Origin: Bacilli bacterium
GTDB taxonomy: Bacteria; Bacillota_I; Bacilli_A; RF39; UBA660
Direction: 5' to 3'
Assembly (NCBI GenBank): GCA_045535005.1
Contig: JAZSKU010000043.1
Span: 1 to 46,232 of the forward strand
DNA: 46,232 bases
The notes under the pieces were generated by a model. It had not been told where the DNA came from. It worked only from the letters and a program-made list of their open reading frames with translations, and made no database searches. A program made the position numbers and the translations under genes. Each line of letters begins with the position of its first letter. Within the stretch, counting starts at the first letter, position 1. This document shows, in pieces, positions 7,343-46,033 of this stretch.

Positions 7343-8989
7343 ATGAGAAAAGAAATCAAATTAGTTTTTGAAGATGGAAATATTATTGAAACATATAGAG
7401 GTATTACTGTTAGAGAAGTAATCAACTTAATAGAAAACGATCAAGATATTATTGCTCTTAGAGTAAATGGTATTGCTGTTAATGCTGATTATGAAATAAT
7501 GGATGATGCTTATATTAATTTTATTCATGTAATTGATAGAACTGGTAGAAAAATATACATAAAAGGGTTACAACATATGTATATTTTAGCAGTTAAGAGA
7601 TTATATGGTGATGATGTTGTTGTAAATATTAAGCATTCTCTTGATAAAGCAATTTATACTGAATTAGAAACTGATATGTTAATTGATTATAATGTTGTTA
7701 AAGCAATTAAAACAGAAATGAAGAAGATTGTTAAAGAGAATATACCATTTAAGAAAGTTGAAGTATCTAGAGGAGATGCATTTGACTATGTTAAAGCTAA
7801 TGGTGAAAAAGAGAAGATGCTTACTTATACATATATGACTAATGATTCTGTTAGTATGTATGATTTAGATGATGAATATAATTATTTCTATTATTTAATG
7901 CCTGCTTCTACTGGAATATTAAGTCGATTTGATTTAACTTTAGTTCAAGATAATGGAATTGTGCTTAGTTATCCAATTAATGGTAGTGTTCCTAAATATA
8001 TTCCTTCTCCTCAAGTTTTAGAAGCATTTAAAACTCATGAGACTAAGTTAAGGAGTTTAGGAGTTAAATATGCTGGAGATATAAATAAGATTGTGTCTCA
8101 AGGTAAGATAATGGATTTTATTCACTTAAGTGAAATTATATATGATAATAATTTAGAAGAAATAGCTAAAAGAGTAAAAAATAATAAAGCTATTAAAGCT
8201 ATATTTATATCAGGGCCAAGTTCTTCTGGTAAGACAACTACTTCTAAAAAACTTTCTATGTATTTAAGAAGTAAGGGTATTGATACTTTTGTATTATCAA
8301 CAGATGATTATTTTGTTGAAAGAAAAGATAGTCCTAAAAAAGCTGATGGTTCTTATGAATTTGAAGTTGTTGAAGCTCTTGATATGAAATTATTTAATTT
8401 GCAACTTAAGAGTTTATTAGATGGTAAAGAGGTTGTTATTCCAACTTATAACTTTATTAAAGGTGAAAAGGAATATAAGAGAAAACCTGAATCATTAAAG
8501 AAGAATCAAGTACTTATTATTGAAGGATTACATGCGATTAATGATAAGTTAAGTAGTTCTATAGATAAAAAGAATAAACTAAAACTTTATATTAGTCCAT
8601 TTATGCCAGTAGGTCTTGATAGACATAATCATATTTCATGTACTGATTTAAGACTTTTAAGAAGAATGGTAAGAGACTATAAACATAGAGGATATTCTGC
8701 TGAAGCTACTTTAGATAGTTGGCTTGGTATGAGAGCTAGTGAAGAAAGTTATATTTATCCATATCAAAGAGAAGCTGATGTTGTTATAAATACTTCTTTA
8801 GGATATGAACTTGGTGTACTTAGAACATATGTTGAACCTTTATTATATTCTATTAGTAAAGATTCACCTTGTTATGAAGAAGCTGTTAGAATATTAAATT
8901 TCTTAAAAGGTTTCTTAAATATACCTAGTGATGATATTCCAAGTACTAGTGTACTTAGAGAATTTATTGGTAATAGTTATTTTGAATAG
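7343..8989 (+). CDS. Nucleoside (uridine) kinase with N-terminal TGS/ThrRS-like domain
   Basis: SGPSSSGKTT P-loop, STDDYF, YEFE.VEALD, IIEGLHA, DLRLLRRMVRD..RG, S.LREFIG.S.F end; 548 aa typical of this fusion family. Confidence 0.88.
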   Translation: MRKEIKLVFEDGNIIETYRGITVREVINLIENDQDIIALRVNGIAVNADYEIMDDAYINFIHVIDRTGRKIYIKGLQHMYILAVKRLYGDDVVVNIKHSLDKAIYTELETDMLIDYNVVKAIKTEMKKIVKENIPFKKVEVSRGDAFDYVKANGEKEKMLTYTYMTNDSVSMYDLDDEYNYFYYLMPASTGILSRFDLTLVQDNGIVLSYPINGSVPKYIPSPQVLEAFKTHETKLRSLGVKYAGDINKIVSQGKIMDFIHLSEIIYDNNLEEIAKRVKNNKAIKAIFISGPSSSGKTTTSKKLSMYLRSKGIDTFVLSTDDYFVERKDSPKKADGSYEFEVVEALDMKLFNLQLKSLLDGKEVVIPTYNFIKGEKEYKRKPESLKKNQVLIIEGLHAINDKLSSSIDKKNKLKLYISPFMPVGLDRHNHISCTDLRLLRRMVRDYKHRGYSAEATLDSWLGMRASEESYIYPYQREADVVINTSLGYELGVLRTYVEPLLYSISKDSPCYEEAVRILNFLKGFLNIPSDDIPSTSVLREFIGNSYFE

Positions 8990-9002: not shown

Positions 9003-9998
9003 ATGTTAAGAATAGCAATTAATGGTTTTGGTAGAATAGGAAGAACTGCATTAAGATTATTAGAAAATGATAAGGATATTGAAGTAGTAGCAATTAATGA
9101 TTTAACTGATCCTCTACAACTTGCATATTTATATAAATATGATTCAGTTCATAGAAAAAATAATTCTAAAATTAATTTTGATGAAGATGAATTATTTGTT
9201 AAAAATAGAAAGATTAAAGTTTTTGCTGAACCTGATCCAAGTAAATTACCTTGGAAGGAATTAAATATTGATATAGTTTTAGAGTGTACTGGTATATTTA
9301 CTAGTGGTGAAAAATGTCAAGCTCACTTAGATGCTGGGGCTAAACATGTTATTATTAGTGCTCCTGCTAAGGATGATGTTAAAACTATTGTATATGGTGT
9401 TAATCATGATATTTTATCTAAAGATGATAAAGTTATTAGTGCTGCTAGTTGTACTACAAATTGTTTAGCTCCTGTACTTCATTTAATTGATAAGAAGTAT
9501 GGTATTGTTAAAGGATTTATGACTACAGTTCATGCTATGACAAATGATCAAGAAACTTTAGATATTCCTCATAAAAAAGGTATTTCTAGTAGAAGAGGTA
9601 GAGCTGCTTCTTTAAATATTATTCCTACTAGTACTGGTGCAGCAAGTCAAATTGGTAAAGTTATACCTCATTTAAATGGTAAACTTGATGGTATTGCATT
9701 TAGAGTTCCTGTAGGAGATGGTTCTGTTATTGATGTAACACTTGAACTTAAAAATAATACTACTAGTGATGATGTTAATAACATGTTTAAATCTAATCAA
9801 AGTAAAGTTATTAAATATACTGATGATCCAATTGTTAGTGGAGATATCATTGGTGAAGAGTGTGGGGCTACTGTTGATGGTTTATTAACTAATGTAGTTG
9901 AAGAAGATGGTCATCAATTATTAAAGGTAGTTGCATGGTATGATAATGAAGTAGGTTACACTGCTCAAATGATTAGAACTATGAAGTTATTTATGTAA
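9003..9998 (+). CDS. gap: Type I glyceraldehyde-3-phosphate dehydrogenase
   Basis: INGFGRIGR, ASCTTNCLAP catalytic Cys, IIPTSTGAA, AWYDNE. Confidence 0.97.
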   Translation: MLRIAINGFGRIGRTALRLLENDKDIEVVAINDLTDPLQLAYLYKYDSVHRKNNSKINFDEDELFVKNRKIKVFAEPDPSKLPWKELNIDIVLECTGIFTSGEKCQAHLDAGAKHVIISAPAKDDVKTIVYGVNHDILSKDDKVISAASCTTNCLAPVLHLIDKKYGIVKGFMTTVHAMTNDQETLDIPHKKGISSRRGRAASLNIIPTSTGAASQIGKVIPHLNGKLDGIAFRVPVGDGSVIDVTLELKNNTTSDDVNNMFKSNQSKVIKYTDDPIVSGDIIGEECGATVDGLLTNVVEEDGHQLLKVVAWYDNEVGYTAQMIRTMKLFM

Positions 9999-10025
9999 AG
10001 TACAACTTAAAAAGTTGTACTTTTT
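9997..10025 (+). terminator. Intrinsic terminator after gap
   Basis: AAAGTACAACTT-AAA-AAGTTGTACTTT plus T. Confidence 0.85.
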
Positions 10026-10067
10026 ATTTTTACTCATATTATAATAGAGATATAAGGAGAATTGTTT

Positions 10068-11873
10068 ATGTGTGGAATTATTGGCTATAGAGGAAAAAGA
10101 AATGTTAAGAACGTTTTAGTTAATGGTTTAGAAACATTAGAATACAGGGGTTATGATTCTGCAGGTATAGCTGTACTTGAGAATAAAAAAATTAGAGTTA
10201 TTAAATCTGTTGGTAAGATTGAAGACTTAAGAAATAAACTTAAGAAATATGAATTAGATAAATCTATTTGTGGTATTGCACATACTAGATGGGCTACACA
10301 TGGAAAAGTTTGTGAAGAAAATTCACACCCTCATAAAGTAGGAAAAGTGTGTTTAGTTCATAATGGAATTGTTGAAAATTATAAAGAAATTGAAAGTAAA
10401 TTAAAAGATAAATATGAATTTAAGAGTGAAACTGATACTGAAAGAGTAGCTGCTTTACTTGATAGTTATTATGATGGTACTAATGAAATTGAGGCTATTG
10501 ATAAAACTATTAAAGAATTAACTGGTAGTTATGCTTTAGCTATTATGTTTGATGATAATGATAAAATATATGGTGTTAAAAAGGATGCTCCTTTAGTACT
10601 TGGAGTAGGTGATAAAGAATTTTTTATATCTAGCGATATATCTGCTATATTACCTTATACTCCTGAACATATTATTTTAGAAGATAATGAGATTGTTGAG
10701 ATATCATCTAATAAATTCGATATTTATTATAATGGAGTAATTATTTATAAAAAGATTGATATTGCAACTTGGAATATTGAAGAAGCACAAAAGGGTGGAT
10801 ATGAACACTTTATGCTTAAAGAGATTGAAGAACAAGAAGAAGTTGCTAAGAAGTTATATGCTAAATATATAGAGGATGATGATTTTTCTGATTTAGTTGT
10901 TGATCTTAGTAAATATAAAAGAATTGATTTCGTTGCTTGTGGTAGTGCATATCATGCTTCTTTAGTTGCTAAATATTTTGTTGATAAATATTGTACTACT
11001 AGAGACTTTTATGCTAATTGTTATGTAGCAAGTGAATATAGATATTCTAATCATTATTTTGATTCTGATGTATTAGTTGTACTTTTATCTCAAAGTGGTG
11101 AAACTGCTGATACCCTTGCATGTCTTAGAATGTGTAAGGAAGAGAATGTAGATACTTTAGCAATTGTTAATGTTGTATCTTCAACTATTGCTCGTGAAGC
11201 TAAATATGTTATGCCTATGCTTGCTGGACCTGAAATATGTGTTGCGACAACTAAGGGATACTTTGCTCAAAGTTATATATGCAGTTTATTACTTCTTAAA
11301 TATATGTATCGTATGAGACTTATTAATAAAGAAGAAAAAGATAGAATTTTAGAGGATTTTAAAAAATTACCTAAATTAATTAAAAAAGTTATTGAGATAC
11401 CTAGTTATAAAGAAATAGCTAAATCAATATATAAAAATAATGATATATATTATATTGGTCGTGGTATAGATATATATAGTTGTTATGAAGCTAGTCTAAA
11501 ATTAAAAGAAATATCATATATTCATAGTGAATGTTTTGCTGCGGGGGAACTTAAACATGGACCTATTGCTCTTATTTCTAAAAATACTCCAGTGGTAGCA
11601 TTATTAAGTGAATTTTCTGTTAGAGAAAAAACTATAAGTAATATTATTGAAGCTAAAAGTAGAGGCGCTAAAGTAATTGTTATTAGAAAAGAATCTATTA
11701 ATTTAGAATTATCTACATTTAATTATGAAATAGTTGTTCCATTAATAAGTGAATATGTTCAAAATTTACTTATCATGGTAGCTTGTCAACTTTTAGCATA
11801 TGAAGTTGCTAAGTTTAGAAAGTGTGATATTGATAAACCAAGAAACCTTGCTAAAAGTGTGACAGTTGAATAG
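10068..11873 (+). CDS. glmS: Glutamine--fructose-6-phosphate transaminase (isomerizing)
   Basis: MCGIIG start (ATG 10068, SD AAGGAG), LEYRGYDSAG, HTRWATHG, SQSGETADT, C-terminal DKPRNLAKSVTVE. Confidence 0.97.
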   Translation: MCGIIGYRGKRNVKNVLVNGLETLEYRGYDSAGIAVLENKKIRVIKSVGKIEDLRNKLKKYELDKSICGIAHTRWATHGKVCEENSHPHKVGKVCLVHNGIVENYKEIESKLKDKYEFKSETDTERVAALLDSYYDGTNEIEAIDKTIKELTGSYALAIMFDDNDKIYGVKKDAPLVLGVGDKEFFISSDISAILPYTPEHIILEDNEIVEISSNKFDIYYNGVIIYKKIDIATWNIEEAQKGGYEHFMLKEIEEQEEVAKKLYAKYIEDDDFSDLVVDLSKYKRIDFVACGSAYHASLVAKYFVDKYCTTRDFYANCYVASEYRYSNHYFDSDVLVVLLSQSGETADTLACLRMCKEENVDTLAIVNVVSSTIAREAKYVMPMLAGPEICVATTKGYFAQSYICSLLLLKYMYRMRLINKEEKDRILEDFKKLPKLIKKVIEIPSYKEIAKSIYKNNDIYYIGRGIDIYSCYEASLKLKEISYIHSECFAAGELKHGPIALISKNTPVVALLSEFSVREKTISNIIEAKSRGAKVIVIRKESINLELSTFNYEIVVPLISEYVQNLLIMVACQLLAYEVAKFRKCDIDKPRNLAKSVTVE

Positions 11874-11960
11874 TAAAATTTTATGTAAAAGTTTAATTAA
11901 TTTTATTATTTGGTAGAAAAGAAACTCTTATTATAGTATAATTATAATAGGAGTTTTATT

Positions 11961-14876
11961 ATGGGATTTGAAACTAAGAAATTTAAGAAAAATATTATGT
12001 TTTTTATTGTTAGTTTTACATTATTAGTCATATTACTTCTAGTAACAACTTTGATGGATTCAGGTGGTAATACTCTTGATAAAGTTGATTTAAATGATAA
12101 TGATGTAAATATTAATGATTTAGTTATAAATGAAATTATGACATCAAATAATGGTGTTTTAGCAGATACAAATGGAAATATATATGATTATATTGAGTTA
12201 TATAATGGTAGTGATAAAGATATTAACTTAGAAAGTTATGGTCTTAGTGATGAAGGTACTGTTAAATGGGTATTTCCAAATGTAACTATTAAAGCAAATG
12301 AATATATGATTGTATATTTAAGTGGTACTAAGGAAGATGGATTATATGCACCATTTAAATTAAAATCTAGTGGTGGAGAAGTAATTACATTATTTAGACC
12401 TAATGGTAAAGTTATTGATGCTGCTGATATAGTGTCACTTGATTCTAATATGGTTATGGCTCGTGATGAGAATGGTAAATGGGTATTACAAAATAAAGCT
12501 ACACCAGGATATTCAAATAATATAGATGGATATAATGCATTTATTAAGTCTATTGCTAGTGAAGATGAAAAAACAATTGTTATTAATGAATTATTACCAA
12601 ATAATAAAGGTAACTTTGTTAATGAAAATGGAGAATATAGTGGATATATCGAAGTAATTAATGTTAGTGATAAAAAGGTTGATCTTACAAATTACAGTTT
12701 ATCTAATGATGAAAGTATAAGTTTTAAATGGCAATTTCCAAGTGTAACATTATCACCTGGTGAAGTATTAGGTATATATACATCTGGTGTTAGTAATAAA
12801 GTTGATACTTTAAGTACTTCTTTTAAGCTTAGAAGTAAAAATGGTAGTGCTATTCTTACTAATAACAAGGGTAAAGTAATTGATAAAGTTACTTATGAAA
12901 ATCTTGCTAGTGGTGTTGCATTAATTCGTGATAACGGTAAAATGCATGAAAGTATTGATTTATCTTTTGGACAACCAAATACTGTTGATGGAATTAAAAA
13001 ATTCCAAAAGAAATATTTAAAAGTAAATAAAGGGCTTATTATTAGTGAAGCAATGAGTCTTAATTATAAATATTTACCTCATAATGGTGGTGAATATTAT
13101 GATTGGATTGAGTTATATAATAATACATCTGAAACTATAAAATTAAGTGATTATTGTTTAACAACTAATACTGATACTATGTGTATGTATAAGTTACCTG
13201 ATAAGGAACTTAAGAAGGGTGAATATTATGTAGTTATGGCTTCTGGGGATACTAATTTATCTACTAGTAAGTATAAACATGCTAACTTTAATATATCTGA
13301 TACACAAAGTGTATATATTACAAAATCTAATGATGTTATTGATTCTTTAGTTATTCATAATGTACCTAAAGGTTATTCTATCGGTAAGGGTGAAAGTGAA
13401 GGAATATATTATTTTAAAACACCAACACCTTTAAAGGATAATAGTAGTGGAACAAGAGCTATAGCTTATGTTCCTTCTGCTTCTGTACCTTCTGGTATAT
13501 TTAATGATTCTAAGAGTTTTAAAGTCAGTTTAACTGGTGATGATAAAATATATTACACAACTGATGGTTCAACTCCAACAACATCTTCTAAAGTTTACAG
13601 TAGTCCTCTTACTATCAAGAAGACTACTGTTTTAAGAATAATGAGTAAATCTTCTAATAAACTTAAAAGTGATGTAGTTACTTATTCATATATTGTTAAT
13701 GAGAACCATAAAGTACCTGTTATGTCTATCGCAATAGATGAAAGTAAGTTAAATAGAGTTAATAGTCATACATCTTTAAATAGTCCAGTTATTGAGGAAT
13801 GTGATGTAGAACTTATTGAAAAAGATGGTACTGGATTTAAAATTAGTGCTGGTCTTAAATTATTTGGTGGTTCTACTAGAAGTTATAAAAAGAAAAGTTA
13901 TGAAATTAAATTTAAGAAAGAGTTTGGTGACTCTAAATTAGAATATAAAGTATTTGATGATGTTGATAGTAGTAGATTTGATTCTTTAGTTCTTAGAACT
14001 GGGTCTCAAGATGAATTTCAATATAATGATCAAAGAACTGTTATTAAAGATGTAGTTGCTACTTCTTTAATGGGTGATTATACTGATGTAGATGTTCAAG
14101 ATTATAAATCAATTATTTTATACATAAATGGTGAATATTGGGGTATTTATTTTATAAGAGAGAAAGTTGATGAAACTTTTGTGGCTAACCATTATAATGT
14201 TAAAACTACTGAAGAAAATACAAGTATTTTAAGAATTGATGGTGAAGTTAAATCTGGTACTAATAAGGAATATAATTCTCTTATTAGTTATGTTACTAGT
14301 AATAATTTAAATACTAAGAAACATTATAATTATGTTAAAGAAAGAATTGATATACAAAGTTTTTGTGATTTCTGGATAGGTGAAATTTATACTGCTAACT
14401 ATGATATTTTAAATACTAGATATTTTTCTAATCCTAATGTTGATGGTGGTAAATGGAAATATATATTCTATGATCTTGATTCAGGATTTTTTAGAACTAC
14501 TAATAATTCATTTAGAGAATATACTAATCCATCAGGTATGGGATTTGGATATTTCCCAACTACATTACTTAGAAATATGATGAAGAGTGATGAATTTGAA
14601 AAAACATTTTTAGAAAGACTTTCATATAATTTAAATAATACATGGAAATATGAAAATGTTAGCAAAAGAATAGATAGTGTTATTAATGAATTTGGTAAAG
14701 ATGAATTTAAACGTAATGCTTCTAGATGGGGTAACTCATATAGTCATTGGGAAAGTTCTATTAAAGCTATGAAGAGTTTTGCTAAGAATAGAAATTCTAA
14801 TATTGTTAGTCAAGCTAAATCTTATTTTGGTTTAAGTAATAGCGAAGTTAAGAAATATTTTGGTGATGTGGAATGA
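11961..14876 (+). CDS. Membrane-anchored CotH-family kinase with three lamin-tail domains and a chitobiase/Fn3-associated domain
   Basis: N-terminal TM helix; three LTD-like repeats (VINEIM..DYIELYN, VINELL..YIEVIN, IISEAM..DWIELYN); YYTTDGSTPT; CotH motifs KKSYEIKF, LYINGEYWGIY.IREK.D, NYD..N, WKYIFYDLD.GF. Confidence 0.88.
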   Translation: MGFETKKFKKNIMFFIVSFTLLVILLLVTTLMDSGGNTLDKVDLNDNDVNINDLVINEIMTSNNGVLADTNGNIYDYIELYNGSDKDINLESYGLSDEGTVKWVFPNVTIKANEYMIVYLSGTKEDGLYAPFKLKSSGGEVITLFRPNGKVIDAADIVSLDSNMVMARDENGKWVLQNKATPGYSNNIDGYNAFIKSIASEDEKTIVINELLPNNKGNFVNENGEYSGYIEVINVSDKKVDLTNYSLSNDESISFKWQFPSVTLSPGEVLGIYTSGVSNKVDTLSTSFKLRSKNGSAILTNNKGKVIDKVTYENLASGVALIRDNGKMHESIDLSFGQPNTVDGIKKFQKKYLKVNKGLIISEAMSLNYKYLPHNGGEYYDWIELYNNTSETIKLSDYCLTTNTDTMCMYKLPDKELKKGEYYVVMASGDTNLSTSKYKHANFNISDTQSVYITKSNDVIDSLVIHNVPKGYSIGKGESEGIYYFKTPTPLKDNSSGTRAIAYVPSASVPSGIFNDSKSFKVSLTGDDKIYYTTDGSTPTTSSKVYSSPLTIKKTTVLRIMSKSSNKLKSDVVTYSYIVNENHKVPVMSIAIDESKLNRVNSHTSLNSPVIEECDVELIEKDGTGFKISAGLKLFGGSTRSYKKKSYEIKFKKEFGDSKLEYKVFDDVDSSRFDSLVLRTGSQDEFQYNDQRTVIKDVVATSLMGDYTDVDVQDYKSIILYINGEYWGIYFIREKVDETFVANHYNVKTTEENTSILRIDGEVKSGTNKEYNSLISYVTSNNLNTKKHYNYVKERIDIQSFCDFWIGEIYTANYDILNTRYFSNPNVDGGKWKYIFYDLDSGFFRTTNNSFREYTNPSGMGFGYFPTTLLRNMMKSDEFEKTFLERLSYNLNNTWKYENVSKRIDSVINEFGKDEFKRNASRWGNSYSHWESSIKAMKSFAKNRNSNIVSQAKSYFGLSNSEVKKYFGDVE

Positions 14877-15559
14877 AAACGTATAAGTATAGACATGAAA
14901 TAAAATATAAAATTTCTAATAGTGCTGCTGAAGTATTAAAACAAAAGTTATCTTTGATTCTAAAGAAAGATAAAAATGCTTTTTATGAAGATGGTTCTTA
15001 TATGATTAAGAGTTTATATTTTGATGATAGAGAATCTAGTTCATATTATGAAAAGTTAGATGGTGTTTTATACAGAAAGAAGTATAGAATTAGAATATAT
15101 AATAATAATGATGAGTATATTCGTCTTGAGAAAAAGATGAAGCATAATAATATGACTTCTAAAGAGCAAATGTTGATTTCAAAGGACATATATAGTAAAA
15201 TATTAAATGGTAAACTAGATGAAATAGAAAATCCAACTGGTTTATTATTAGAGTTTATTACTGATAGTAAAAATAAGGGTTTAATTCCATCAGTAATTGT
15301 TGAATATCATAGGATAGCTTTTACTTATCCTACATGTGATGTTAGAATTACTTTTGATTCTAATATTACTAGTGGTCTTTATGATTATGATTTATTCAAT
15401 GTAGATGGTGTTAGATATCCAGTTGTTGAAAAAGGAAAACAAGTATTAGAAGTTAAATATAATGAAGCATTACCTTTACATATAGCTAATATATTAAATG
15501 ATATTCCTAGTAATAGAGAAGCTGTAAGTAAGTTTGCAATTTGTAGAAGTATAAAGTAA
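14873..15559 (+). CDS. VTC / polyphosphate polymerase domain protein (CYTH-like triphosphate tunnel fold)
   Basis: RHEIKY, SLYFDD, RKKYRIRIY, RLEKK.K, YHRIAF, VRITFD, VLEVKY, SKF match the Vtc4 catalytic-domain motif series; ATGA overlap with the CotH gene. Confidence 0.9.
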   Translation: MKTYKYRHEIKYKISNSAAEVLKQKLSLILKKDKNAFYEDGSYMIKSLYFDDRESSSYYEKLDGVLYRKKYRIRIYNNNDEYIRLEKKMKHNNMTSKEQMLISKDIYSKILNGKLDEIENPTGLLLEFITDSKNKGLIPSVIVEYHRIAFTYPTCDVRITFDSNITSGLYDYDLFNVDGVRYPVVEKGKQVLEVKYNEALPLHIANILNDIPSNREAVSKFAICRSIK

Positions 15560-15572
15560 GGATGTGAGTTAA

Positions 15573-16256
15573 ATGAGTATTGTTGATACAATTAAAAAAT
15601 CTGTTTTAGACAATTTTAGTGGAACTATTTCTCCATGGGATATGTTTATCTCATTAATAGTTGCATTTATTATTGCGATGTTTATTATATATGTTTATAG
15701 AAAAACATATACTGGAGTTGTTTATTCAAAAGCATTTTCATTATGTATATTAATGCTTGCGATGGTTACAACTATGATTATTCAAACTATTAGTACTAAT
15801 ATTTCATTATCTTTAGGTATGGTCGGTGCGTTATCTATCGTAAGATTTAGAACTGCTGTTAAAGAACCTGTTGATACTGGATTTATGTTCTGGGGTATAA
15901 GTGCTGGTATTATGTGTGGTGCTGGGCTATATATAGCTGCTATAGTAGCATCATTATCAATTGGAATTTTATTCTATGTAAGTTATCTTATGGGATTTAG
16001 AACTTCAAGTAGATATTTATTAGTTTTAAAATATAAACCAAGTGCACATGATACTGTATTAAAAAAATTAAAATCTTTAAAGAAATTTAAAGTTAGAAGT
16101 AAAAGTATTTTTGGAAATGAAGTTGAGTTATCTTTAGAAGTAGATATTAAAGATGGTAAGACAAGTCTTGATTCTAATATAGTTGATCAATTTAATGGAG
16201 TTGATGGAATCGTTAATGCTAGTTTAATAGCTTATCAAAATGATTTTGGTGAATAG
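15573..16256 (+). CDS. DUF4956 membrane protein
   Basis: Several TM helices with LSLGMVGALSIVRFRTAVKEP.D..F.FW.I.AG..CG.G; soluble C-terminal ACT-like region. Confidence 0.9.
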   Translation: MSIVDTIKKSVLDNFSGTISPWDMFISLIVAFIIAMFIIYVYRKTYTGVVYSKAFSLCILMLAMVTTMIIQTISTNISLSLGMVGALSIVRFRTAVKEPVDTGFMFWGISAGIMCGAGLYIAAIVASLSIGILFYVSYLMGFRTSSRYLLVLKYKPSAHDTVLKKLKSLKKFKVRSKSIFGNEVELSLEVDIKDGKTSLDSNIVDQFNGVDGIVNASLIAYQNDFGE

Positions 16257-16265
16257 GAGAGGGTT

Positions 16266-17648
16266 ATGGCTAGGAGAGGAAGACTTAAGATTACGCCTGT
16301 TTTAATGGCGTTAAATATTTTAATAATAGTAATTATTGCGATATTTTATACATCTAGATTAGTTATATATTATTTTGATTTTAATGGTAAAAAAGTATCA
16401 AATGGAGATGTTAAATTAGTTGATGCTGTATTAGATAAACAAAGTTATGTTGATTTAACAACTGGTCTTGTATATGACGAAGAAAATAATATATATAGAT
16501 TTAAAGGTGATGTAGATAATAACTATATTGAATATTCTGGTATTTTATATAGAATTATTGGTATCGATAATGAAAATAATGTAAGAGCTGTTAGTGATGA
16601 TGTTGTCACTATTATGTATTCTGGTCTTGAAAAAGGTTATGATAAATCTTATGTTAATAAATGGTTAAATAAAAGTGACGCTAAGAATAGTGGAGTATAT
16701 CAAAATACTATGTATAAACCTGAAGATGTATTAGTTTATACATATATGTGTACTGATACTGTTGATGATGTTACTAATATTACATGTGAAAATAATCTTA
16801 ATGATTATGAAGTAACTTTATTATCTTTATATGATTATGCTCAAGCTGGTGGTAAAGGTAGTTATTTAAATAATGGAGAGAATTTCTATTTATCAACACT
16901 TAATAGTACTAAAGAAAACTATTTTGTAACTGATGAAGGTGAAATTTCTATAAACAATATAAGTACTAAGACATATGGTGTTAGACCTGTTATTACATTT
17001 AATGGTAAAACTATATTATTAGATGGTGAAGGTACTAAGGATAAACCATTTATCATTGAAAAACATGATATTAATACTACTGGGGATGTTTATGTTGGTG
17101 ATTATATTGAATTTAATGATGCGACTTATAAAGTAGTATCAATTGATGATAAAGGTGTTAGAGCTGCTAGAACTGATGTACTTAAAATAGATGATAAGAT
17201 TGTTAATAGAAAATTCTCATCATCTAGTAGTAGATTAAGTGCTAATTCAGGTAATCTTGGTAACTATTTAAATATTGAGTATTATCAATCTATGGATAAG
17301 AAAGAATATTTAGATGGTAATGATTGGTATGTAGCTATGCAAACACTTAATAATTTAGATTATAGTGCTGTATATAATAGTAAAACTTATTTAAGAATTG
17401 GACTTTTAGGTTTAGGTGACTTATTTGTTCATGAAGTTAATAATGTATTTACTATTACAAGAGGTGTTGAGTCAGAAGATGTTATATTAGTTATTAATGA
17501 AGAGGGACATGTGTTCTCTGATTTAGCTAGTCATAAATATAATATTAGACCTGTATTTAATTTCAGAAAGAATATTGAAATTAAATCTGGTGATGGTAGT
17601 ATTGATTCACCATATGTATTAGGAGAGTTAAATGAAGAAGAAAAGTAA
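16266..17648 (+). CDS. Membrane-anchored surface protein with two tandem DUF6273-like domains
   Basis: N-terminal TM; internal duplication NYIEYSGILYRII...GVRPVI..G.GTKDKPF / DYIEFNDATYKVV...NIRPVF..GDGSIDSPY. Confidence 0.6.
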   Translation: MARRGRLKITPVLMALNILIIVIIAIFYTSRLVIYYFDFNGKKVSNGDVKLVDAVLDKQSYVDLTTGLVYDEENNIYRFKGDVDNNYIEYSGILYRIIGIDNENNVRAVSDDVVTIMYSGLEKGYDKSYVNKWLNKSDAKNSGVYQNTMYKPEDVLVYTYMCTDTVDDVTNITCENNLNDYEVTLLSLYDYAQAGGKGSYLNNGENFYLSTLNSTKENYFVTDEGEISINNISTKTYGVRPVITFNGKTILLDGEGTKDKPFIIEKHDINTTGDVYVGDYIEFNDATYKVVSIDDKGVRAARTDVLKIDDKIVNRKFSSSSSRLSANSGNLGNYLNIEYYQSMDKKEYLDGNDWYVAMQTLNNLDYSAVYNSKTYLRIGLLGLGDLFVHEVNNVFTITRGVESEDVILVINEEGHVFSDLASHKYNIRPVFNFRKNIEIKSGDGSIDSPYVLGELNEEEK

Positions 17649-18666
17649 TAACAAAGTTAGTAAATTAAGTGTTACTTTAATAGTTATAGATGTTATTGCA
17701 TTAGTTTGTTTCTTTGTTGTTTATGGACCTTTTTCTTTCTTTAGAGATTGGTATGTAACTACTGCGATGACTACTATGACTCATAAGTATCTTGCTTATA
17801 TATTTTATGATCAAGATATGATTGATGAAGTACTTGATAATAATAAGATTATTGAATCAACAGATCCTACTGATACATCTAAAATAAGTTTTAATCCTAA
17901 TTTTAATGCTGGTTCATATGAATCAATTTATGAGGAACAAATACTTAAAAAAGATGAAGGAAATGATGATTATAAAATAATAGAATTAGAAGAAGATAAT
18001 TGGCATGGTTACATGGCTGTTATCTATGATCCATCTAAGATTGAACTTGTATTTACTAAGAATTATGGTACAAGTAGAGGTGGATATATTTCTACTTTAG
18101 GTAAAGAAAATAAAGCATTAGTTGCGATGACAGGTAGTGGTGTTCAACATAAGAATGGTGCTAACTTAGTTACTGGTACAACTATTGTTGATGGTAAAAT
18201 ATTTGCTGTAGGTAGAGAAATTAATAAAGGTGGAGGACTTATTGGTTTTACTAAAGATAATGTTCTTATGTTAACTAAAAAGTCTGCTAAAGAAGCTATA
18301 AAAGATGGAATGGATAGAGCTGTAGAGTTTGGACCATTCTTAATAGTTAATGGTAAACCATCTAAGTTTAGTGGTAATGGTGGTGGTGGTAAACATCCAA
18401 GAACTGCTATTGCACAAAGACAAGATGGAATTGTATTATTCCTTGTTATTGAAGGAAGAACATCTAGTTCTGCTGGTATGACATATCCTGAACTTACTGA
18501 ATTACTTCAAAAGTATAAAGCTTATAATGCCGCTAATTTAGATGGGGGTGGAAGTAGTGCTTTATATGCAGTTGTTAATGGTAAGGGTAAACTATTAAAT
18601 GAACAAGGTGGATATGGATATTCTGGTGAAAGATATATGCCTAATGCATGGATGTTACTTCCATAG
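17632..18666 (+). CDS. Phosphodiester glycosidase (NAGPA family), membrane anchored
   Basis: N-terminal TM; FGPFLIVNG, HPRTAIAQ..DG, AANLDGGGSS motifs. Confidence 0.9.
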   Translation: MKKKSNNKVSKLSVTLIVIDVIALVCFFVVYGPFSFFRDWYVTTAMTTMTHKYLAYIFYDQDMIDEVLDNNKIIESTDPTDTSKISFNPNFNAGSYESIYEEQILKKDEGNDDYKIIELEEDNWHGYMAVIYDPSKIELVFTKNYGTSRGGYISTLGKENKALVAMTGSGVQHKNGANLVTGTTIVDGKIFAVGREINKGGGLIGFTKDNVLMLTKKSAKEAIKDGMDRAVEFGPFLIVNGKPSKFSGNGGGGKHPRTAIAQRQDGIVLFLVIEGRTSSSAGMTYPELTELLQKYKAYNAANLDGGGSSALYAVVNGKGKLLNEQGGYGYSGERYMPNAWMLLP

Positions 18667-18688
18667 TATATAAATAGAGGGTGAAGTT

Positions 18689-19246
18689 ATGGAAATTAAA
18701 TTTAGAGATCCTAAGATATATATTATCGGTGGAAAAGCTAAGCATGGAAAAGATACTTTTTCAGGTTTTCTAAAAGAAGTATATGAGGAAAAGGGTAAAG
18801 ATGTAATTGTTACTCAGCTTTCTAAGTATATTAAGTATTATGCTAGAGAGATGACCGGTTGGGATTTAAGTGAAGAAACTAAACCACGAGAATTCTTACA
18901 ACAGTTAGGAACTAGTGTTATTAGACAACAATTAAAGAAAGATGATTTATTTATAAAAAGAATGATAGATGATATAGAAGTATTCTCTTATTTCTATGAT
19001 GCTATTATTATAAGTGATGTTAGACTTAAAAAAGAAATTAATGATTTAAAAAGTGCATATCCAAATCTAAAAGTTATTCGTGTTAATAGACCTGATTTTG
19101 ACAATGGTCTTACAGAAGAACAAAAGAATCATATAACAGAAATAGATTTAGATGATTTTGATGGATTTGATGATGAAATAATTAATACAACTTTTGATGA
19201 ATTAAAAGAAAGCGCATTAAATTTATACACAAAGAATGAAAGGTAG
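18689..19246 (+). CDS. P-loop nucleotide monophosphate kinase (dNMP kinase / phosphomevalonate kinase-like)
   Basis: IIGGKAKHGKDT, R..LQQLGT..IR, IIISDVR, H.TE..LD. Confidence 0.7.
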   Translation: MEIKFRDPKIYIIGGKAKHGKDTFSGFLKEVYEEKGKDVIVTQLSKYIKYYAREMTGWDLSEETKPREFLQQLGTSVIRQQLKKDDLFIKRMIDDIEVFSYFYDAIIISDVRLKKEINDLKSAYPNLKVIRVNRPDFDNGLTEEQKNHITEIDLDDFDGFDDEIINTTFDELKESALNLYTKNER

Positions 19247-19255
19247 GTATAAAAA

Positions 19256-20404
19256 GTGGAAAGTATTAAGAAAGCAAATGTATTTGAAAAGGTTGTTTTA
19301 GTAAGAGTTGATTATAATGTACCAATAGAAAAAGGTAAAATTGTAGATGATACGAGAATCGTGGGTAGTTTAAAAACTATTAATCATTTACTAGATCATA
19401 ACGCTAAAATAGTTTTATTATCTCATTTAGGAAGAGTTAATTGTGAAGAAGATAAGAAAAAGAATTCTCTTGAAATAGTTGCTAAACACTTATCCACATT
19501 ACTTCCTACTGGTGTTTATTTTGTACCTGTAACTCGTGGTCCTATTTTAGAAAAGACTATTCAAAGTATGTTACCAGGTGAAATAGTATTAGTTGAAAAT
19601 ACAAGATTTGAGGATTATCCTAAAACTTTAGAAAGTTCTTGTGATGAAGCATTATCTAAATATTGGGCTGGTCTTGCTGATATATTTGTTTTAGATGCAT
19701 TTGGTACTGCTCATAGATGTCATGCTTCTACATATGGAATTAGTAAATATATTCCATCATATTCAGGATTCTTAGTTGATGCTGAAATTGCTATGTTAGA
19801 TAAAGCTCTTCATCATAGAAAATCTATGATTCTTGGTGGATCTAAAGTAGATGATAAAATCGGTGTTATTGATAACTTAATCAATACATCTGATGAAATA
19901 TTACTTGGTGGAGCTATGTGTTTCACATTCTTACATGCTCTTGGTTACAATGTAGGTAAAAGTATTGTAAGTGAAGAAAAAGTTAATTATGCTAAAAAGT
20001 TATTAGAAGATCATAAAAATAAAATATTCTTACCTGTTGATGTTAAGACACAAAACGGTGTTAAGAAGGTAGAAGATATGTCTGATGATGATATCGGATA
20101 TGATATTGGTCCTCAAACAATTAAAAAATATAAAGAATTATTAATTGATAGTAAATTAGTTTTATGGAATGGACCTTTAGGTATGTATGAAGATGAAGAA
20201 TATCAAAAAGGTACATATGAAATTATGAAGTATTTATATAATCAATCAGTACCAACTATATTAGCTGGTGGGGATATTACAGGTGCTTCTAAGAAATTTA
20301 AATTAGATTTATATTATGTTTCTACTGGAGGAGGTTCTACATTAGAATATTTAGAAGGTAGAAGATTTAAGACTTTAGAAAGACTTAATGGTGAAAAGAA
20401 ATAG
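19256..20404 (+). CDS. pgk: Phosphoglycerate kinase
   Basis: GTG start; VRVDYNVP, SHLGR, ENTRF, DAFGTAHR.HAS, WNGPLG, STGGG. Confidence 0.96.
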   Translation: MESIKKANVFEKVVLVRVDYNVPIEKGKIVDDTRIVGSLKTINHLLDHNAKIVLLSHLGRVNCEEDKKKNSLEIVAKHLSTLLPTGVYFVPVTRGPILEKTIQSMLPGEIVLVENTRFEDYPKTLESSCDEALSKYWAGLADIFVLDAFGTAHRCHASTYGISKYIPSYSGFLVDAEIAMLDKALHHRKSMILGGSKVDDKIGVIDNLINTSDEILLGGAMCFTFLHALGYNVGKSIVSEEKVNYAKKLLEDHKNKIFLPVDVKTQNGVKKVEDMSDDDIGYDIGPQTIKKYKELLIDSKLVLWNGPLGMYEDEEYQKGTYEIMKYLYNQSVPTILAGGDITGASKKFKLDLYYVSTGGGSTLEYLEGRRFKTLERLNGEKK

Positions 20405-20420
20405 TATTTAAGGAGGATAT

Positions 20421-21128
20421 ATGAAAAAGATAATACTTAATCAAAAAAGTTATCTATTATATGATGATATGGTTAAATTTAAAAAAGAATTTGATAAATT
20501 TAATGTACCTAATCATGAATTAATTATATTTCCTCCATTATTATATCTTTCTATGTTTAAGGATTCTCAATATAAAGTAGGTGTTCAAAACTTTCATAGT
20601 TATAAGATGGGATCATTTACTGGAGAATTAAATTTAGAATCTTTAAGAGATATAGGTATTAAATATACTTTAGTAGGTCATTATGAAAGAAGACAATATG
20701 TTAGTGAGACATATGAAGTATCTAAAGAAAAATTATTTAAATCTATTAGTTCTAAAAATAATACTATATTATGTGTAGGTGAACATAGAAAGACTAGAAA
20801 TCCATTTGCTTATATAAAGAAAGAATTAAACTTTTATTTAAAAGCAATAGATTTTACTAGTATAAAATATTTATCTATCTTATATGAACCAAATTGGGCT
20901 GTTGGAAGTGGTAAAATTCAATGTGCTGATAAAATAGAAAAGACTATTAAGAAAATTAAAGATTATGTTTTAAAGAAATATGATTATAAAGTTGAAGTAT
21001 ATTATGGTGGTTCTATAGATAAAGAAAATATTGAAAAAATATTAGAGATATCTGATGGTATAGTACTTGGAAAAGTAAGTACTGATATGACTGAACTTAA
21101 AGATATGTTAAGTGTGTTAAAGAAATAA
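20421..21128 (+). CDS. tpiA: Triosephosphate isomerase (divergent)
   Basis: NQK, GSFTGE, GHYERR, CVGE, YEPNWAVG, YGGS; follows pgk. Confidence 0.88.
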   Translation: MKKIILNQKSYLLYDDMVKFKKEFDKFNVPNHELIIFPPLLYLSMFKDSQYKVGVQNFHSYKMGSFTGELNLESLRDIGIKYTLVGHYERRQYVSETYEVSKEKLFKSISSKNNTILCVGEHRKTRNPFAYIKKELNFYLKAIDFTSIKYLSILYEPNWAVGSGKIQCADKIEKTIKKIKDYVLKKYDYKVEVYYGGSIDKENIEKILEISDGIVLGKVSTDMTELKDMLSVLKK

Positions 21129-21149
21129 TTGCTATGCAATTGTTTTTTT
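21124..21149 (+). terminator. Intrinsic terminator after tpiA
   Basis: AATAATTGC-TAT-GCAATTGTT plus T run. Confidence 0.65.
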
Positions 21150-21168
21150 ATGCAATAAAATGATACTT

Positions 21169-21185
21169 TTAGACAATTTTCGACA
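21169..21185 (-). promoter_or_regulatory. Tandem Spo0A boxes (0A boxes) upstream of spo0A
   Basis: TTCGACA 21179-21185 (= TGTCGAA, perfect) and TTAGACA 21169-21175 (1 mismatch), 10 bp apart. Confidence 0.7.
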
Positions 21186-21234
21186 CAAATTATTATATAT
21201 AATGTAATATATTATTTATGATAAAGGAGAAAAT

Positions 21235-21990
21235 ATGAAAATTAATGTCTTAGTAGTAGATGATAATGAAGTACTAGTAGGATTAATTAAGGAGTATTTT
21301 TGTAAGAGTGAAATAGTTAATATTATTGATACAGCAAATGATGGATTTGATGCGATTAATAAATTAAATAAATATGATAATGTTGATGTTGTTTTACTCG
21401 ATTTGGTCATGCCTAATAAGGATGGTTTTGGTGTATTAAAGTATATGAAAGAGAATAATATTAATACTAATGTTATTGTTATGACTTCATATACGAGTGA
21501 AGTTGTTATGAAAAGTATTAGTTCTTATGGTGTATCTTTTTATGCATTAAAACCATTTGATATGGAAGATATTGAAGATAAGATTAATGATATATTTGTT
21601 AATAAAGATAAGAATAATAAGATATTTGATTTTAGTAATTATAATTTACAACAAAAGATAACAAGTTTATTACATAATTTGGGTATTCCATCTAATATTA
21701 AGGGATATCAGTTTATTAGAACAGCAATACTTATGGTATATGATAATCCTAATTTAATAGGTGGTATTACTAAAGAATTGTATCCAAATATATCTATTGA
21801 ATATAATACATCTGTGCAAAGGGTAGAACGTGCTATAAGACACGCTATTGAAGTATCTTGGTTAAGAGGAGATATTGATCTTATGGAAGAGATATTTGGT
21901 CATAGTGTATCTATTGATAAAGCTAAACCAACCAATAGTGAGTTTATTGTTACTATTGCTGATAAGTTAAGACTTGAGAGTGCAATATAA
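21235..21990 (+). CDS. spo0A: Sporulation master regulator Spo0A
   Basis: Receiver domain (VVDDN, LLDLVMP, KPFD) plus Spo0A C-domain LGIP..IKGY.FIR.AI, ITKELYP, RVERAIRHAIEV.W.RG, KPTNSEFI..IADKLRL. Confidence 0.96.
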   Translation: MKINVLVVDDNEVLVGLIKEYFCKSEIVNIIDTANDGFDAINKLNKYDNVDVVLLDLVMPNKDGFGVLKYMKENNINTNVIVMTSYTSEVVMKSISSYGVSFYALKPFDMEDIEDKINDIFVNKDKNNKIFDFSNYNLQQKITSLLHNLGIPSNIKGYQFIRTAILMVYDNPNLIGGITKELYPNISIEYNTSVQRVERAIRHAIEVSWLRGDIDLMEEIFGHSVSIDKAKPTNSEFIVTIADKLRLESAI

Positions 21991-27395: not shown

Positions 27396-27668
27396 ATGTC
27401 AAGAAGTTTAAAGAAAGGACCTTATACATTCCCAAGACTTTTAAAAAGAGTTAAGGATTTAAATGAAAAAGGTAAAAAAGAAGTAATAAAAACTTGGTCA
27501 AGACGTTCTACAATATATCCAGACTTTGTAGGACATACATTTGCAGTACATAATGGACGTGAATTTATTCCTGTATATGTTACTGAAGATATGGTAGGAC
27601 ATAAACTTGGAGAATTTGCTTTAACTCGTAAGTTTACTGGCCATGCTGGAAGCGGTAATAAGAAGTAG
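27396..27668 (+). CDS. rpsS: 30S ribosomal protein S19
   Basis: [26 protein letters not shown]. Confidence 0.98.
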
Positions 27669-27679
27669 GAGGTATTTGA

Positions 27680-28030
27680 ATGGAAACTTATAGTATACAT
27701 AAAGGTGCTCAAATAGCACCAAGAAAAGCAAGAATGACTCTTGATCTTATTAGAGGTAAAAATGTATCTCAAGCTGAAGCAATTCTACTTACTACAAATA
27801 CTAAAGCAAGTAGATTAATAATTAAAGTTCTAAATTCTGCAGTTGCAAACGCTGTTAATAACTTTGGAGCTAAGAAAGAAGATTTAGTTATCAAAGAAAC
27901 TTATATTAATGAAGGAAGAACATTAAAGAGAAGTAAAGCTGCATCTCACTCAAGAGTTGCTAAAAATTATCATAGAACAAGTCATATTTATGTTTGTGTA
28001 ACTGATAATATGACAGAGAAGGAGGACTAA
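27680..28030 (+). CDS. rplV: 50S ribosomal protein L22
   Basis: PRKAR...DLIRGK, SAVANA.NN, RTSHI. Confidence 0.96.
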
Positions 28031-41089: not shown

Positions 41090-41148
41090 AAGAGTTTTGT
41101 AGACAGGATTAAAAAGTAAATCAATTCTTTAACAATAAAAAGAATTTT

Positions 41149-42720
<1,572 letters not shown>

Positions 42721-42905
42721 ATGGAGTATTTCTTATAGAAAACAATATCGTTTCTGCTAGTTTAGATATTAAAACTCAAACTAGTTTCGTAGAACCTTTC
42801 TACAAACTGTAAAACTTATTTTACTTAGCTTTGAGAGACCGTTTCTCATAACTTGTTATGAAAAACTTCTCTCTATATTATTGTATAGAATGTATTATAC
42901 AATAA

Positions 42906-42929
42906 TTGTTCTTTGAAAACTTGGTAATG
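42906..42929 (+). promoter_or_regulatory. Spacer boxA and 5' arm of the 23S processing stem
   Basis: TTGTTCTTTGAAAAC; largely complementary to 46003-46026. Confidence 0.7.
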
Positions 42930-43045
42930 TGATATTTGTATATGTTGTAACGAGCACATATACATAAGAGTAATTTTTTAATAGAGTAATCTAAAGAAAT
43001 TTAGATATTAAGAAATCAATCTCATCAAATTAGGAAATTGTAAGT

Positions 43046-45971
<2,926 letters not shown>

Positions 45972-46033
45972 CTAATTATTATTATTTTTGATATATTTTA
46001 AGCATTATCTTGTTTTTAAAGGACAAAATCCTT

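Follow-up and report, generated by a model that had tools for sequence, protein, structure and literature searches.

For the system treated here, the only relative of known function is the eukaryotic VTC complex (Vtc4/Vtc3/Vtc1; 3G3Q, 7YTJ, 8I6V), in which Vtc4 is a polyphosphate polymerase of the triphosphate-tunnel type; according to the accessible parts of a study of the yeast complex, the tunnel domain performs poorly when isolated and depends on the chain being drawn off in a coupled step through a channel with a lining of basic residues (PMC9911596). For bacteria, a gene set with a putative polymerase of this type is in print as an accessory of pel operons. The available parts of the preprint by Whitfield et al. 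(bioRxiv 10.1101/768473) describe, directly adjoining the pel operons of streptococci, clostridia and bifidobacteria, the accessory genes cotH, DUF4956, DUF4832 and that of a polyphosphate polymerase, and the available sections of a preprint on S. intermedius (bioRxiv 10.1101/2024.04.20.589940) read the polymerase of SIR_1594-1592 as cytoplasmic since VTC channel subunits are absent, call the third protein MgtC-like and state that the trio is not found outside pel operons. Here, we analysed a stretch of 46,232 nucleotides (nt) from a Bacilli bacterium (GCA_045535005.1, JAZSKU010000043.1), hereafter the window, to whose positions all coordinates refer. It carries a further, non-pel instance of this gene set, encoding a CotH-family protein, a Vtc4-like VTC protein and a DUF4956 membrane protein, followed by a 460-amino-acid (460-aa) protein and a NAGPA-family glycosidase. 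VTC and DUF4956 were found to be an obligate or near-obligate pair, with CotH tied to one of two deep VTC clades. We propose, with a probability of roughly 0.4 for the full chain, that the VTC protein polymerises polyphosphate in the cytoplasm, that DUF4956 exports the polymer and that the CotH protein handles it outside. The five genes are:

11961..14876, + strand: CotH gene, 971 aa, membrane-anchored protein with three lamin-tail domains (LTDs), an Fn3-associated domain and a CotH kinase-fold domain (open reading frame, translation, Pfam)
14873..15559, + strand: VTC gene, 228 aa, soluble Vtc4-like triphosphate-tunnel protein (Pfam, profile, AlphaFold2 (AF2) model, Foldseek)
15573..16256, + strand: DUF4956 gene, 227-aa membrane protein (Pfam, alignment, AF2 model, Foldseek)
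16266..17648, + strand: 460-aa gene, internally duplicated protein anchored at its N-terminus (translation, transmembrane (TM) scan, self-comparison)
17632..18666, + strand: gene of a NAGPA-family phosphodiester glycosidase, 344 aa, with an N-terminal anchor (Pfam, TM scan)

The stop codon of the CotH gene and the start codon of the VTC gene share the letters ATGA, and the 13-nt gap between VTC and DUF4956 contains a Shine-Dalgarno-like AAGGA, both read in the sequence itself. The tight coupling of these three genes had been named in an earlier reading of the same DNA, made from the letters alone (the original prediction), which saw in them a system for polyphosphate synthesis and export feeding a surface kinase. 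That reading is partly supported as a whole. The motifs it quoted (RHEIKY, SLYFD, RIRIY, EKKMK, YHRIAF, VRITFD, VLEVK, SKF and IVRFRT) all occur in the translations. It drew the unit from 11961 to 16256, where the three genes do lie, but this ends too early: the genes at 16266-17648 and 17632-18666 belong to the unit as well, the former beginning 9 nt past DUF4956 and the latter overlapping it by 17 nt.

How does the locus compare with those next to pel operons? As far as the published descriptions were accessible, the pel accessory set has the same order CotH-VTC-DUF4956 and the same predicted properties as the set in the window, namely a secreted CotH protein, a cytoplasmic polymerase and a membrane protein with an ACT-like domain. 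In contrast to the pel loci, the window contains no pel genes and the genome, 91.7 % complete, no PelG; the CotH protein of the window comprises 971 aa with three LTDs, whereas that of pel loci has about 570 aa and a C-terminal Fn3 domain; and the accessory genes are those of the 460-aa duplicated protein and of NAGPA instead of a DUF4832 glycoside hydrolase. In the VTC tree described below, the window stands apart from the pel-linked copy of genome G141 (L011) and groups with the second, non-pel copy of that genome (L012). The window and the second copies in genomes of a family labelled f8 contradict the statement that the trio does not occur outside pel operons. In C. perfringens, the locus NELoc-2 combines, in the accessible parts of its description, a CotH kinase family protein with two proteins carrying VTC/polyphosphate-polymerase domains; unlike the window, it belongs to a plasmid or pathogenicity region and has genes of the sigma/anti-sigma, glycosyltransferase and deacetylase kinds (PMC11677781). 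Other mentions of DUF4956 in the literature were, in the parts available, rows of transcriptome tables. The original prediction knew of no functional characterisation, and our literature search, which covered few subscription journals, likewise found no functional study of the gene set; the co-occurrence itself is published.

The pairing was counted in a first collection of 400 genomes of the window's phylum, labelled 'same class' or 'same family', using three Pfam models, with one or two genomes per search unscored. Full-length VTC matches were present in 86 genomes, DUF4956 matches in 85 and CotH matches in 86. VTC and DUF4956 occurred together in 84 genomes, VTC alone in two and DUF4956 alone in one, while VTC and CotH shared 60 genomes, with 26 genomes on either side having only one of the two. 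At 94 of the 98 full-length VTC matches, DUF4956 lay within 1 kb on the same strand, 90 times downstream; of the four exceptions, two lie at a contig start, one is in a genome where DUF4956 has no match, and the last is a second copy at a distance of 1.6 kb. CotH was found within 5 kb of 36 of the 98 VTC matches, and VTC near 38 of the 144 CotH matches. We give no probability for these counts because related genomes are not independent. Among 14 named control genomes, VTC and DUF4956 occurred in the same three (B. thetaiotaomicron, C. glutamicum and M. acetivorans), and CotH in those three and in B. subtilis, which matched neither VTC nor DUF4956.

The association with CotH follows the phylogeny of VTC. 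A quick IQ-TREE phylogeny with SH-aLRT support only was computed from 94 VTC proteins, i.e. that of the window and 93 of the 97 other full-length matches; those of G278 (withheld bases), G231 (internal stop), G156 and G380 (both at contig ends) were left out. A branch with a support of 99 splits the tree into clade A with 38 rows and clade B with 56 rows, and CotH lies within 5 kb at 34 of the 38 clade-A loci compared to 2 of the 56 clade-B loci. The CotH label changes five times on the tree, compared to a mean of 28.8 changes after shuffling, and none of 500 shuffles was as low. An exported protein of the family Cthe_2159 (PF14262) was found within 5 kb at 24 of the 56 clade-B loci and at three of the four clade-A loci without CotH, which leaves one clade-A locus with neither. 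A signal, lipobox or anchor segment starts all 11 third partners that were sampled (seven CotH, four Cthe_2159). The window itself falls into an eight-row subclade (support 98) whose loci are all CotH-linked and whose members mostly belong to family f8. The sole same-family (f1) genome with the pair among the 400 (G312, locus L004) shows a GT2 gene, a clade-B VTC, DUF4956 and then an exported Cthe_2159 protein. The history of the cassette is thus at odds with genome taxonomy, because the same-family relative holds the clade-B type while the window groups with f8.

A second collection was obtained by scanning species-representative genomes with a clade-A VTC alignment; its 80 loci, from Bacilli, Clostridia, Collinsella and others, are non-neutral, as they were selected for likeness to clade A. 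Where VTC was flanked by at least 3 kb on either side (56 loci), DUF4956 lay within 1 kb at 55, CotH within 5 kb at 48 (44 times upstream), NAGPA at eight and a homologue of the 460-aa protein at seven. Counted from first in-frame start codons, the upstream CotH gene ends no more than 62 nt from the VTC start in 49 of 53 cases, with an exact 4-nt overlap in 15, and DUF4956 starts no more than 116 nt from the VTC stop in 58 of 59. Chance or hitch-hiking as the origin of the co-location was rejected on the counts of both collections and the tree-shuffle test. The co-location that the original prediction had mentioned for other bacteria, for which it had proposed family searches with neighbourhood statistics, hence holds (94/98 for VTC-DUF4956, 36/98 for CotH, 5 versus 28.8 changes). 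A separate observation concerns contigs titled Muribaculaceae, Bathyarchaeia and Sulfurovum (L108, L109, L112, L124 and L133), which carry the long-CotH-VTC triad with VTC proteins 40-56 % identical to that of the window; at L124, DUF4956 was not detected beside the long CotH and VTC genes. Either these contigs are Bacillota DNA that was binned wrongly, or the cassette has been transferred.

The VTC protein matches Pfam VTC (PF09359) with 113.6 bits against a cut-off of 23 (E 1e-32), from aa 7 to 224 and over profile positions 2-230 of 235. Its single sequence gave a weak match to Vtc4 (E 0.0014), while a profile of 20 diverse VTC relatives found the Vtc4 catalytic domain 3g3q with E 5e-20. 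In Vtc4 native numbering, which was taken from 8i6v with the match starting at residue 191, K11 aligns on K200, the Lys of TTKYW, and R72/R74 align on R264/R266, the Arg pair of HRLRWY; furthermore, E86/K88 fall on 'ERK', K97 on 'VKAR', Y145/R147 on 'YNR' and R158 on 'VRISLD' of Vtc4. K11, R72 and R74 are invariant in 20/20 VTC sequences. The role of Vtc4 K200 is said to have been described by Hothorn et al. in 2009. For the arginine pair, the accessible parts of PMC9911596 report that a yeast VTC complex with the substitutions R264A/R266A/E426N is catalytically impaired. In total, 23 residues are invariant over the 20 sequences, mostly with i, i+2 spacing on eight predicted strands, as expected of residues whose side chains line a tunnel. 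E193/K195 and S219/K220 are among the residues invariant in all 20, and E193 and K220 are candidate equivalents of Vtc4 E426 and K458; the C-terminal 79 aa produced only chance matches to PDB sequences.

The fold prediction leads to the same family. The AF2 model of the VTC protein (predicted local distance difference test, pLDDT, 92.9) has eight strands, and ranks 1-9 of its Foldseek list are entries of the VTC complex (Vtc4 chains in eight cases, another subunit in one; best E 2e-13, TM-score over the query, TMq, 0.74), followed by Vtc2, with other tunnel enzymes at 3e-8 or worse (ygiF 3e-8). By sequence and predicted fold, the protein is thus closest to the Vtc4 polymerase among tunnel enzymes. 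A hydropathy scan detected no TM segment, so that the soluble, Vtc4-like character given in the original prediction is borne out by Pfam, profile, fold and hydropathy. At 82 % identity to its nearest relative, the protein is conserved like the products of gap (85 %) and pgk (74 %). We consider it fairly probable that it synthesises polyphosphate, and synthesis would likely take place at the membrane. Five long VTC relatives were also read: four have a conserved basic low-complexity N-terminus and one (P0142) a multi-pass membrane N-terminus.

The DUF4956 protein matches Pfam DUF4956 (PF16316) with 47.6 bits against a cut-off of 30.6 (E 2e-12), as do 21/21 aligned partners, and the hydropathy scan shows several TM segments. 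Its AF2 model (pLDDT 82.6) consists of five helices (aa 21-139) and a tail of beta-alpha-beta-beta-alpha-beta topology that appears ACT-like or MgtC-C-like (aa 146-220). The description of a multi-TM protein with a basic motif and an ACT-like tail therefore agrees with Pfam, TM scan and model. Across 21 DUF4956 sequences, invariance is restricted to R91 and R93 in VRFRT (nt 15843-15851), with F92, G85, F55 and L59 nearly invariant. From the count of basic loop residues on the model, an outside N-terminus and a cytoplasmic tail are predicted, with the VRFRT motif where helix 3 ends on the cytoplasmic side. A DUF4956 profile found no match among PDB sequences at E up to 1. The best Foldseek match of the model was the C-terminal domain of M. 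tuberculosis MgtC (2lqj, E 4e-3, TM-score over the target, TMt, 0.69), with many small alpha/beta domains close behind, and no VTC chain was among the rows listed. The NCBIfam model MgtC/SapB gave a weak, collinear match (26.5 bits against a cut-off of 214, E 4e-6), and Pfam MgtC matched one of 21 members (E 0.0028).

Like MgtC/SapB proteins, DUF4956 thus combines a hydrophobic N-terminus of about five helices with a small alpha/beta C-terminus (MgtC-C matches 2lqj and 7qa5), but it scores under the family cut-offs. Judged from sequence and model, its architecture is MgtC-like, but it falls outside the MgtC family and is not homologous to the channel of yeast VTC. No pairing of an MgtC protein with a tunnel enzyme is known. 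The notion of a 'split' VTC complex, put forward in the original prediction, did not survive these searches, in which DUF4956 matched no solved chain, the listed Foldseek rows held no Vtc chain and the tail looked most like MgtC-C. A 1:1 complex prediction of VTC and DUF4956 from their own alignments scored 0.02 (mark 0.32) and is evidence neither way. A profile search collected 9541 DUF4956 cluster representatives at E ≤0.001, of which nearly all among the best 150 measure 215-260 aa.

Compared to the eukaryotic VTC complex, the window shares the closest tunnel domain with equivalents of K200 and R264/R266 and an obligatory membrane partner with conserved basic residues. It differs in that its enzyme is a separate, soluble protein of 228 aa; SPX and the DUF202-type membrane domain are absent, as a Pfam scan found no domain beyond VTC and DUF4956 in the respective proteins. 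Its partner appears MgtC-like and unrelated to Vtc1, it is linked to exported enzymes, and its product would go to the cell exterior, whereas that of the yeast-type complex goes to the vacuole. Relative to its eukaryotic counterpart, the cassette would hence be distinguished by a non-homologous membrane partner and an exported kinase.

The CotH protein is built from the following parts:

11982..12077, + strand: hydrophobic N-terminal anchor, aa 8-39, after a Lys-rich stretch, predicted N-in/C-out (hydropathy scan)
12096..13247, + strand: three LTD repeats (aa 46-160, 206-308 and 359-429 at least; Pfam LTD, self-BLAST)
13488..13691, + strand: CHB_HEX_C_1/Fn3_assoc domain, aa 510-577 (Pfam, E 4e-15 and 1e-13)
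13857..14798, + strand: CotH kinase-fold domain, aa 633-946, with invariant N813, D815 and D838 (Pfam, profile)

Pfam LTD matched three stretches (E 8e-42, best at aa 52-156), and self-BLAST of the first repeat against the whole protein returned the others with E 4e-19 and 6e-10. The anchor is the single TM segment in the hydropathy scan; together with the Pfam matches, it verifies the predicted architecture of an anchored protein with three LTDs, an Fn3-associated domain and a CotH domain. The latter matches PF08757 with 138 bits (E 6e-40). A single-sequence search of the PDB with the CotH domain gave no match; a profile of nine VTC-linked CotH proteins, used in its place, matched B. cereus CotH 5jd9 with E 7e-37. 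N813, D815 and D838 are the sole invariant columns in these nine proteins and, in the alignment, coincide with the QNFD and WDYD motifs of 5jd9, and the spacing of 23 between D815 and D838 equals that of D228 and D251 in B. subtilis CotH. Mutants of the catalytic D228 and the metal-binding D251 are inactive according to the accessible parts of PMC7821199. The enzyme looks catalytically competent because these Asn and Asp residues and their spacing are kept. Compared to the Bacillus protein, a spore-coat atypical Ser/Thr kinase (5JD9/5JDA) of about 360 aa that has no anchor, uses ATP and acts on coat proteins made in the mother cell, the window CotH belongs to the same Pfam family and retains the catalytic Asn/Asp, the metal Asp and their identical spacing. 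It differs in being anchored, predicted to lie outside, equipped with LTD and Fn3-associated modules and linked to VTC-DUF4956. An outside kinase, as first predicted, is consistent with the retained Asp pair and the predicted outward orientation. The closest relatives of the window hold CotH versions of 951-980 aa with 42-66 % identity.

The last two genes encode further candidate surface proteins. The 460-aa protein contains a duplication (aa 86-264 against 279-452, E 1.5e-6) and matches no Pfam or NCBIfam family; DUF6273-like clusters of the ESM Atlas provide a lead only, as recognition was below the usual mark. The glycosidase matches Pfam NAGPA (PF09992) with 130.7 bits against a cut-off of 25 (E 8e-38) and is the genome's only NAGPA match. 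Both proteins have one N-terminal hydrophobic segment, and in these two as well as in CotH a Lys/Arg-rich start precedes the anchor segment. Following the positive-inside rule, the CotH, 460-aa and NAGPA proteins are predicted to face outwards, the VTC protein to be cytoplasmic.

The conserved unit comprises five genes in the order CotH, VTC, DUF4956, 460-aa and NAGPA, as in the nearest relatives. In G220, the closest genome of the first collection (VTC 53 % identical), CotH(970), VTC, DUF4956, a 445-aa homologue and NAGPA follow in the same order, and in L102, the closest locus of the second collection, the whole stretch from udk to tpi is identically arranged. Identities to L102 are 85 % for gap, 82 % for VTC, 76 % for glmS, 75 % for DUF4956, 74 % for pgk, 71 % for NAGPA, 66 % for CotH and 47 % for the 460-aa protein; the last appears to be a fast-evolving surface protein, because its neighbours reach 66-85 %. 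L104 matches the window from CotH onwards only, and glmS is a neighbour in L102, not in L104. A homologue of the 460-aa protein occupies the same place in G220, L102, L104 and L107. As a pair, the 460-aa and NAGPA genes lie downstream in L104 and L107, lie upstream and divergent in L111 and L113, and are not present in L106, L108, L110, L112 and L115. Four f8 loci have NAGPA and a GT2-like gene upstream of CotH. The 1.18-Mb assembly (91.7 % complete) has single copies of VTC, CotH, DUF4956 and NAGPA, all in the window. No match to PPK1, PPK2, Ppx-GppA, PelG or Cthe_2159 was found in it, which at this completeness does not prove their absence.

We propose that the locus is a five-gene cell-envelope cassette around an obligate VTC-DUF4956 core. 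The cytoplasmic VTC protein would polymerise the gamma-phosphate of ATP into polyphosphate. It would act at the membrane together with DUF4956, whose R91/R93 are predicted at the cytoplasmic end of helix 3 and which would take the nascent chain from VTC and hand it to the outer face. Outside, the anchored LTD-CotH protein would use, tether or process the exported polymer on a surface protein or glycan, in this lineage perhaps together with the NAGPA glycosidase and the protein with the duplicated domain. When one coupled unit spans a polymerase inside the cell, a protein in the membrane and an enzyme outside, passage of the product across the membrane is the simplest explanation, and the need of the yeast enzyme for coupled chain removal would explain mechanistically why the membrane partner is indispensable. 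The firmest findings are the near-obligate pair, its coupling to an extracytoplasmic partner whose family tracks the clade, and intact catalytic residues in both enzymes. The parts of the proposal differ in strength: delivery of polyphosphate across the membrane by DUF4956 falls somewhat short of an even bet, and we doubt that CotH takes polyphosphate as its phosphoryl donor.

Several observations weigh against this proposal. On the side of the enzyme, the HMMER alignment with Vtc4 ends at profile position 174, so that the equivalents of E426 and K458 are not aligned by sequence, and the first strand reads R-x-E-x-K in bacterial VTC proteins where Vtc4 has R-x-T-x-K. Glu at this site is typical of hydrolytic tunnel enzymes. 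On the side of export, DUF4956 appears unrelated to the yeast VTC membrane domain by sequence and model, and its sole detectable relatives are MgtC proteins. The five-helix monomer model has no pore, and an oligomer must therefore be assumed. No VTC-DUF4956 fusion was found in the best 150 of the 9541 DUF4956 representatives (the longest measuring 396 and 335 aa), and no DUF4956 in the 10 scanned of 17 long VTC relatives (400-536 aa), in all of which VTC is C-terminal. On the side of CotH, no CotH or Cthe_2159 gene lies within 5 kb at 30 of the 56 clade-B loci, and CotH is missing altogether from 26 of the 86 VTC genomes of the 400-genome set; the CotH gene as partner of a triad, part of the original prediction, holds for clade A (34/38) but not for clade B (2/56). 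MgtC proteins are regulators of other membrane proteins, not channels, in the available sections of the S. intermedius preprint (bioRxiv 10.1101/2024.04.20.589940), and ATP is the donor of every characterised CotH in the accessible parts of PMC7821199.

Could the polymer simply stay inside? The main rival explanation holds that polyphosphate remains cytoplasmic and that DUF4956 serves, through its ACT-like tail, as an MgtC-like anchor or regulator coupling VTC activity to membrane or phosphate status; the link to CotH, Cthe_2159 and NAGPA would then reflect shared regulation or the phosphate economy of a phosphate-rich envelope polymer, with CotH using surface-released ATP. We consider this somewhat less probable than the proposed export chain. 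The nearest fold of the DUF4956 tail, the MgtC C-terminal domain, and the weak MgtC/SapB match (E 4e-6) agree with it, as do the lack of an evident pore and of any fusion, the use of ATP by known CotH enzymes (within the accessible text of that source) and the S. intermedius preprint, whose available sections take the polymerase as cytoplasmic for want of VTC channel subunits. However, it leaves unexplained why the third gene encodes an extracytoplasmic protein in 11/11 sampled cases, why CotH and VTC are translationally coupled and why the pairing with DUF4956 is near-obligate, since ordinary polyphosphate kinases need no such partner. Moreover, free cytosolic polyphosphate made by the tunnel enzyme is product-inhibited in yeast, as stated in the accessible parts of PMC9911596.

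Export without phosphoryl transfer was also considered, i.e. that exported polyphosphate itself is the product, a polyanion of surface or matrix; the LTD-CotH or Cthe_2159 proteins would then serve to bind, anchor or trim it. Cthe_2159 proteins form a beta-helix family of the binding type, not one of kinases, yet they replace CotH in three of four clade-A exceptions and accompany 24 of the 56 clade-B pairs; the three LTDs and the Fn3-associated domain of the window CotH fit such a role as well, and in streptococci the gene set adjoins Pel matrix loci, going by the accessible parts of the pel literature. The invariant catalytic Asn/Asp residues in 9/9 linked CotH proteins argue for catalysis over mere binding, and we give this explanation a small probability. 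Smaller still is the probability that the VTC protein is another tunnel enzyme (a tripolyphosphatase, nucleotide cyclase or lipid/sugar phosphotransferase) with DUF4956 as a membrane substrate carrier or sensor. The chemistries of the tunnel superfamily are diverse (the fold list includes ygiF, CyaB-like cyclases and thiamine triphosphatase at lower ranks), and the first-strand Glu replaces the Thr of Vtc4. Against this stand the invariant Lys aligned with Vtc4 K200 and the match to Vtc4, which by far exceeds those to hydrolases and cyclases (E 2e-13 versus 3e-8 or worse; profile E 5e-20).

Polyphosphate in bacteria is attributed to PPK1 and PPK2. If the VTC-type polymerase works with a membrane partner of its own, it would represent a separate bacterial polyphosphate route. 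In its most far-reaching form, which we regard as improbable, the proposed export chain would be a third, VTC-type bacterial route with MgtC-like export and a CotH enzyme that uses polyphosphate instead of ATP on surface proteins or glycans. If true, exported kinase-fold enzymes would gain a source of energy and phosphate outside the cytoplasm, which would solve the extracytoplasmic donor problem. In the same far-reaching reading, the VTC cassette would be the only polyphosphate system of this reduced genome. For life in a host, the cassette is probably important at the cell surface, because it is kept in a gut bacterium with a 1.18-Mb assembly showing no PPK1, PPK2 or PPX; in the accessible parts of the literature, it also lies beside streptococcal biofilm (Pel) loci and in a virulence-associated locus of C. 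perfringens. The clade split predicts the partner sets, with CotH in one clade and often an exported Cthe_2159 protein in the other.

Two neighbouring genes frame the cassette:

10062..11873, + strand: glmS, directly upstream of the cassette, context only (NCBIfam glmS, E 1e-207)
18689..19246, + strand: P-loop kinase-like gene, 185 aa (DNMK/phosphomevalonate-kinase-like), between NAGPA and pgk (Pfam DNMK, E 4e-9)

Further out, gap lies upstream with glmS, and pgk and tpi follow downstream of the 185-aa P-loop gene, which is kept at this site in L102 and L104 only and whose membership in the cassette is uncertain. The distance of about 9.2 kb between gap and pgk-tpi is filled by glmS, the five-gene cassette and the P-loop gene (region 9003-21128). 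A terminator scan of 9900-21300 found its sole terminator-like site just after gap (9997-10023) and none between glmS and the cassette; cassette and glmS are therefore placed inside the gap-pgk-tpi block. We claim no transcription start, as the promoter scan was at chance level (91 sites compared to 91.3 in shuffles), and Rfam detected no riboswitch or ribozyme close to glmS or the cassette. The GC content is about 0.25-0.30 over this AT-rich region. In the whole window, all open reading frames of at least 100 aa outside the rRNA operon lie on the + strand, with the single exception of one of 116 aa (27422-27772).

Some minor observations on the surroundings are added. The exceptional 116-aa frame at 27422-27772 sits within + strand ribosomal-protein genes; the ribosomal-protein cluster extends over 24.5-38 kb and a complete rRNA operon over 41148-46139. 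GC skew is strongly positive across the window (1-46232; 0.16-0.43 in 2-kb windows). Despite the 1.18-Mb genome, a full Spo0A with receiver domain and Spo0A_C (E 3e-38) is encoded at 21235-21990. In the 548-aa protein encoded at 7343-8989, the uridine-kinase/PRK domain is confined to aa 287-483, and the N-terminal part of about 280 aa shows a weak threonyl-tRNA-synthetase-like match (aa 84-179, E 9e-4).

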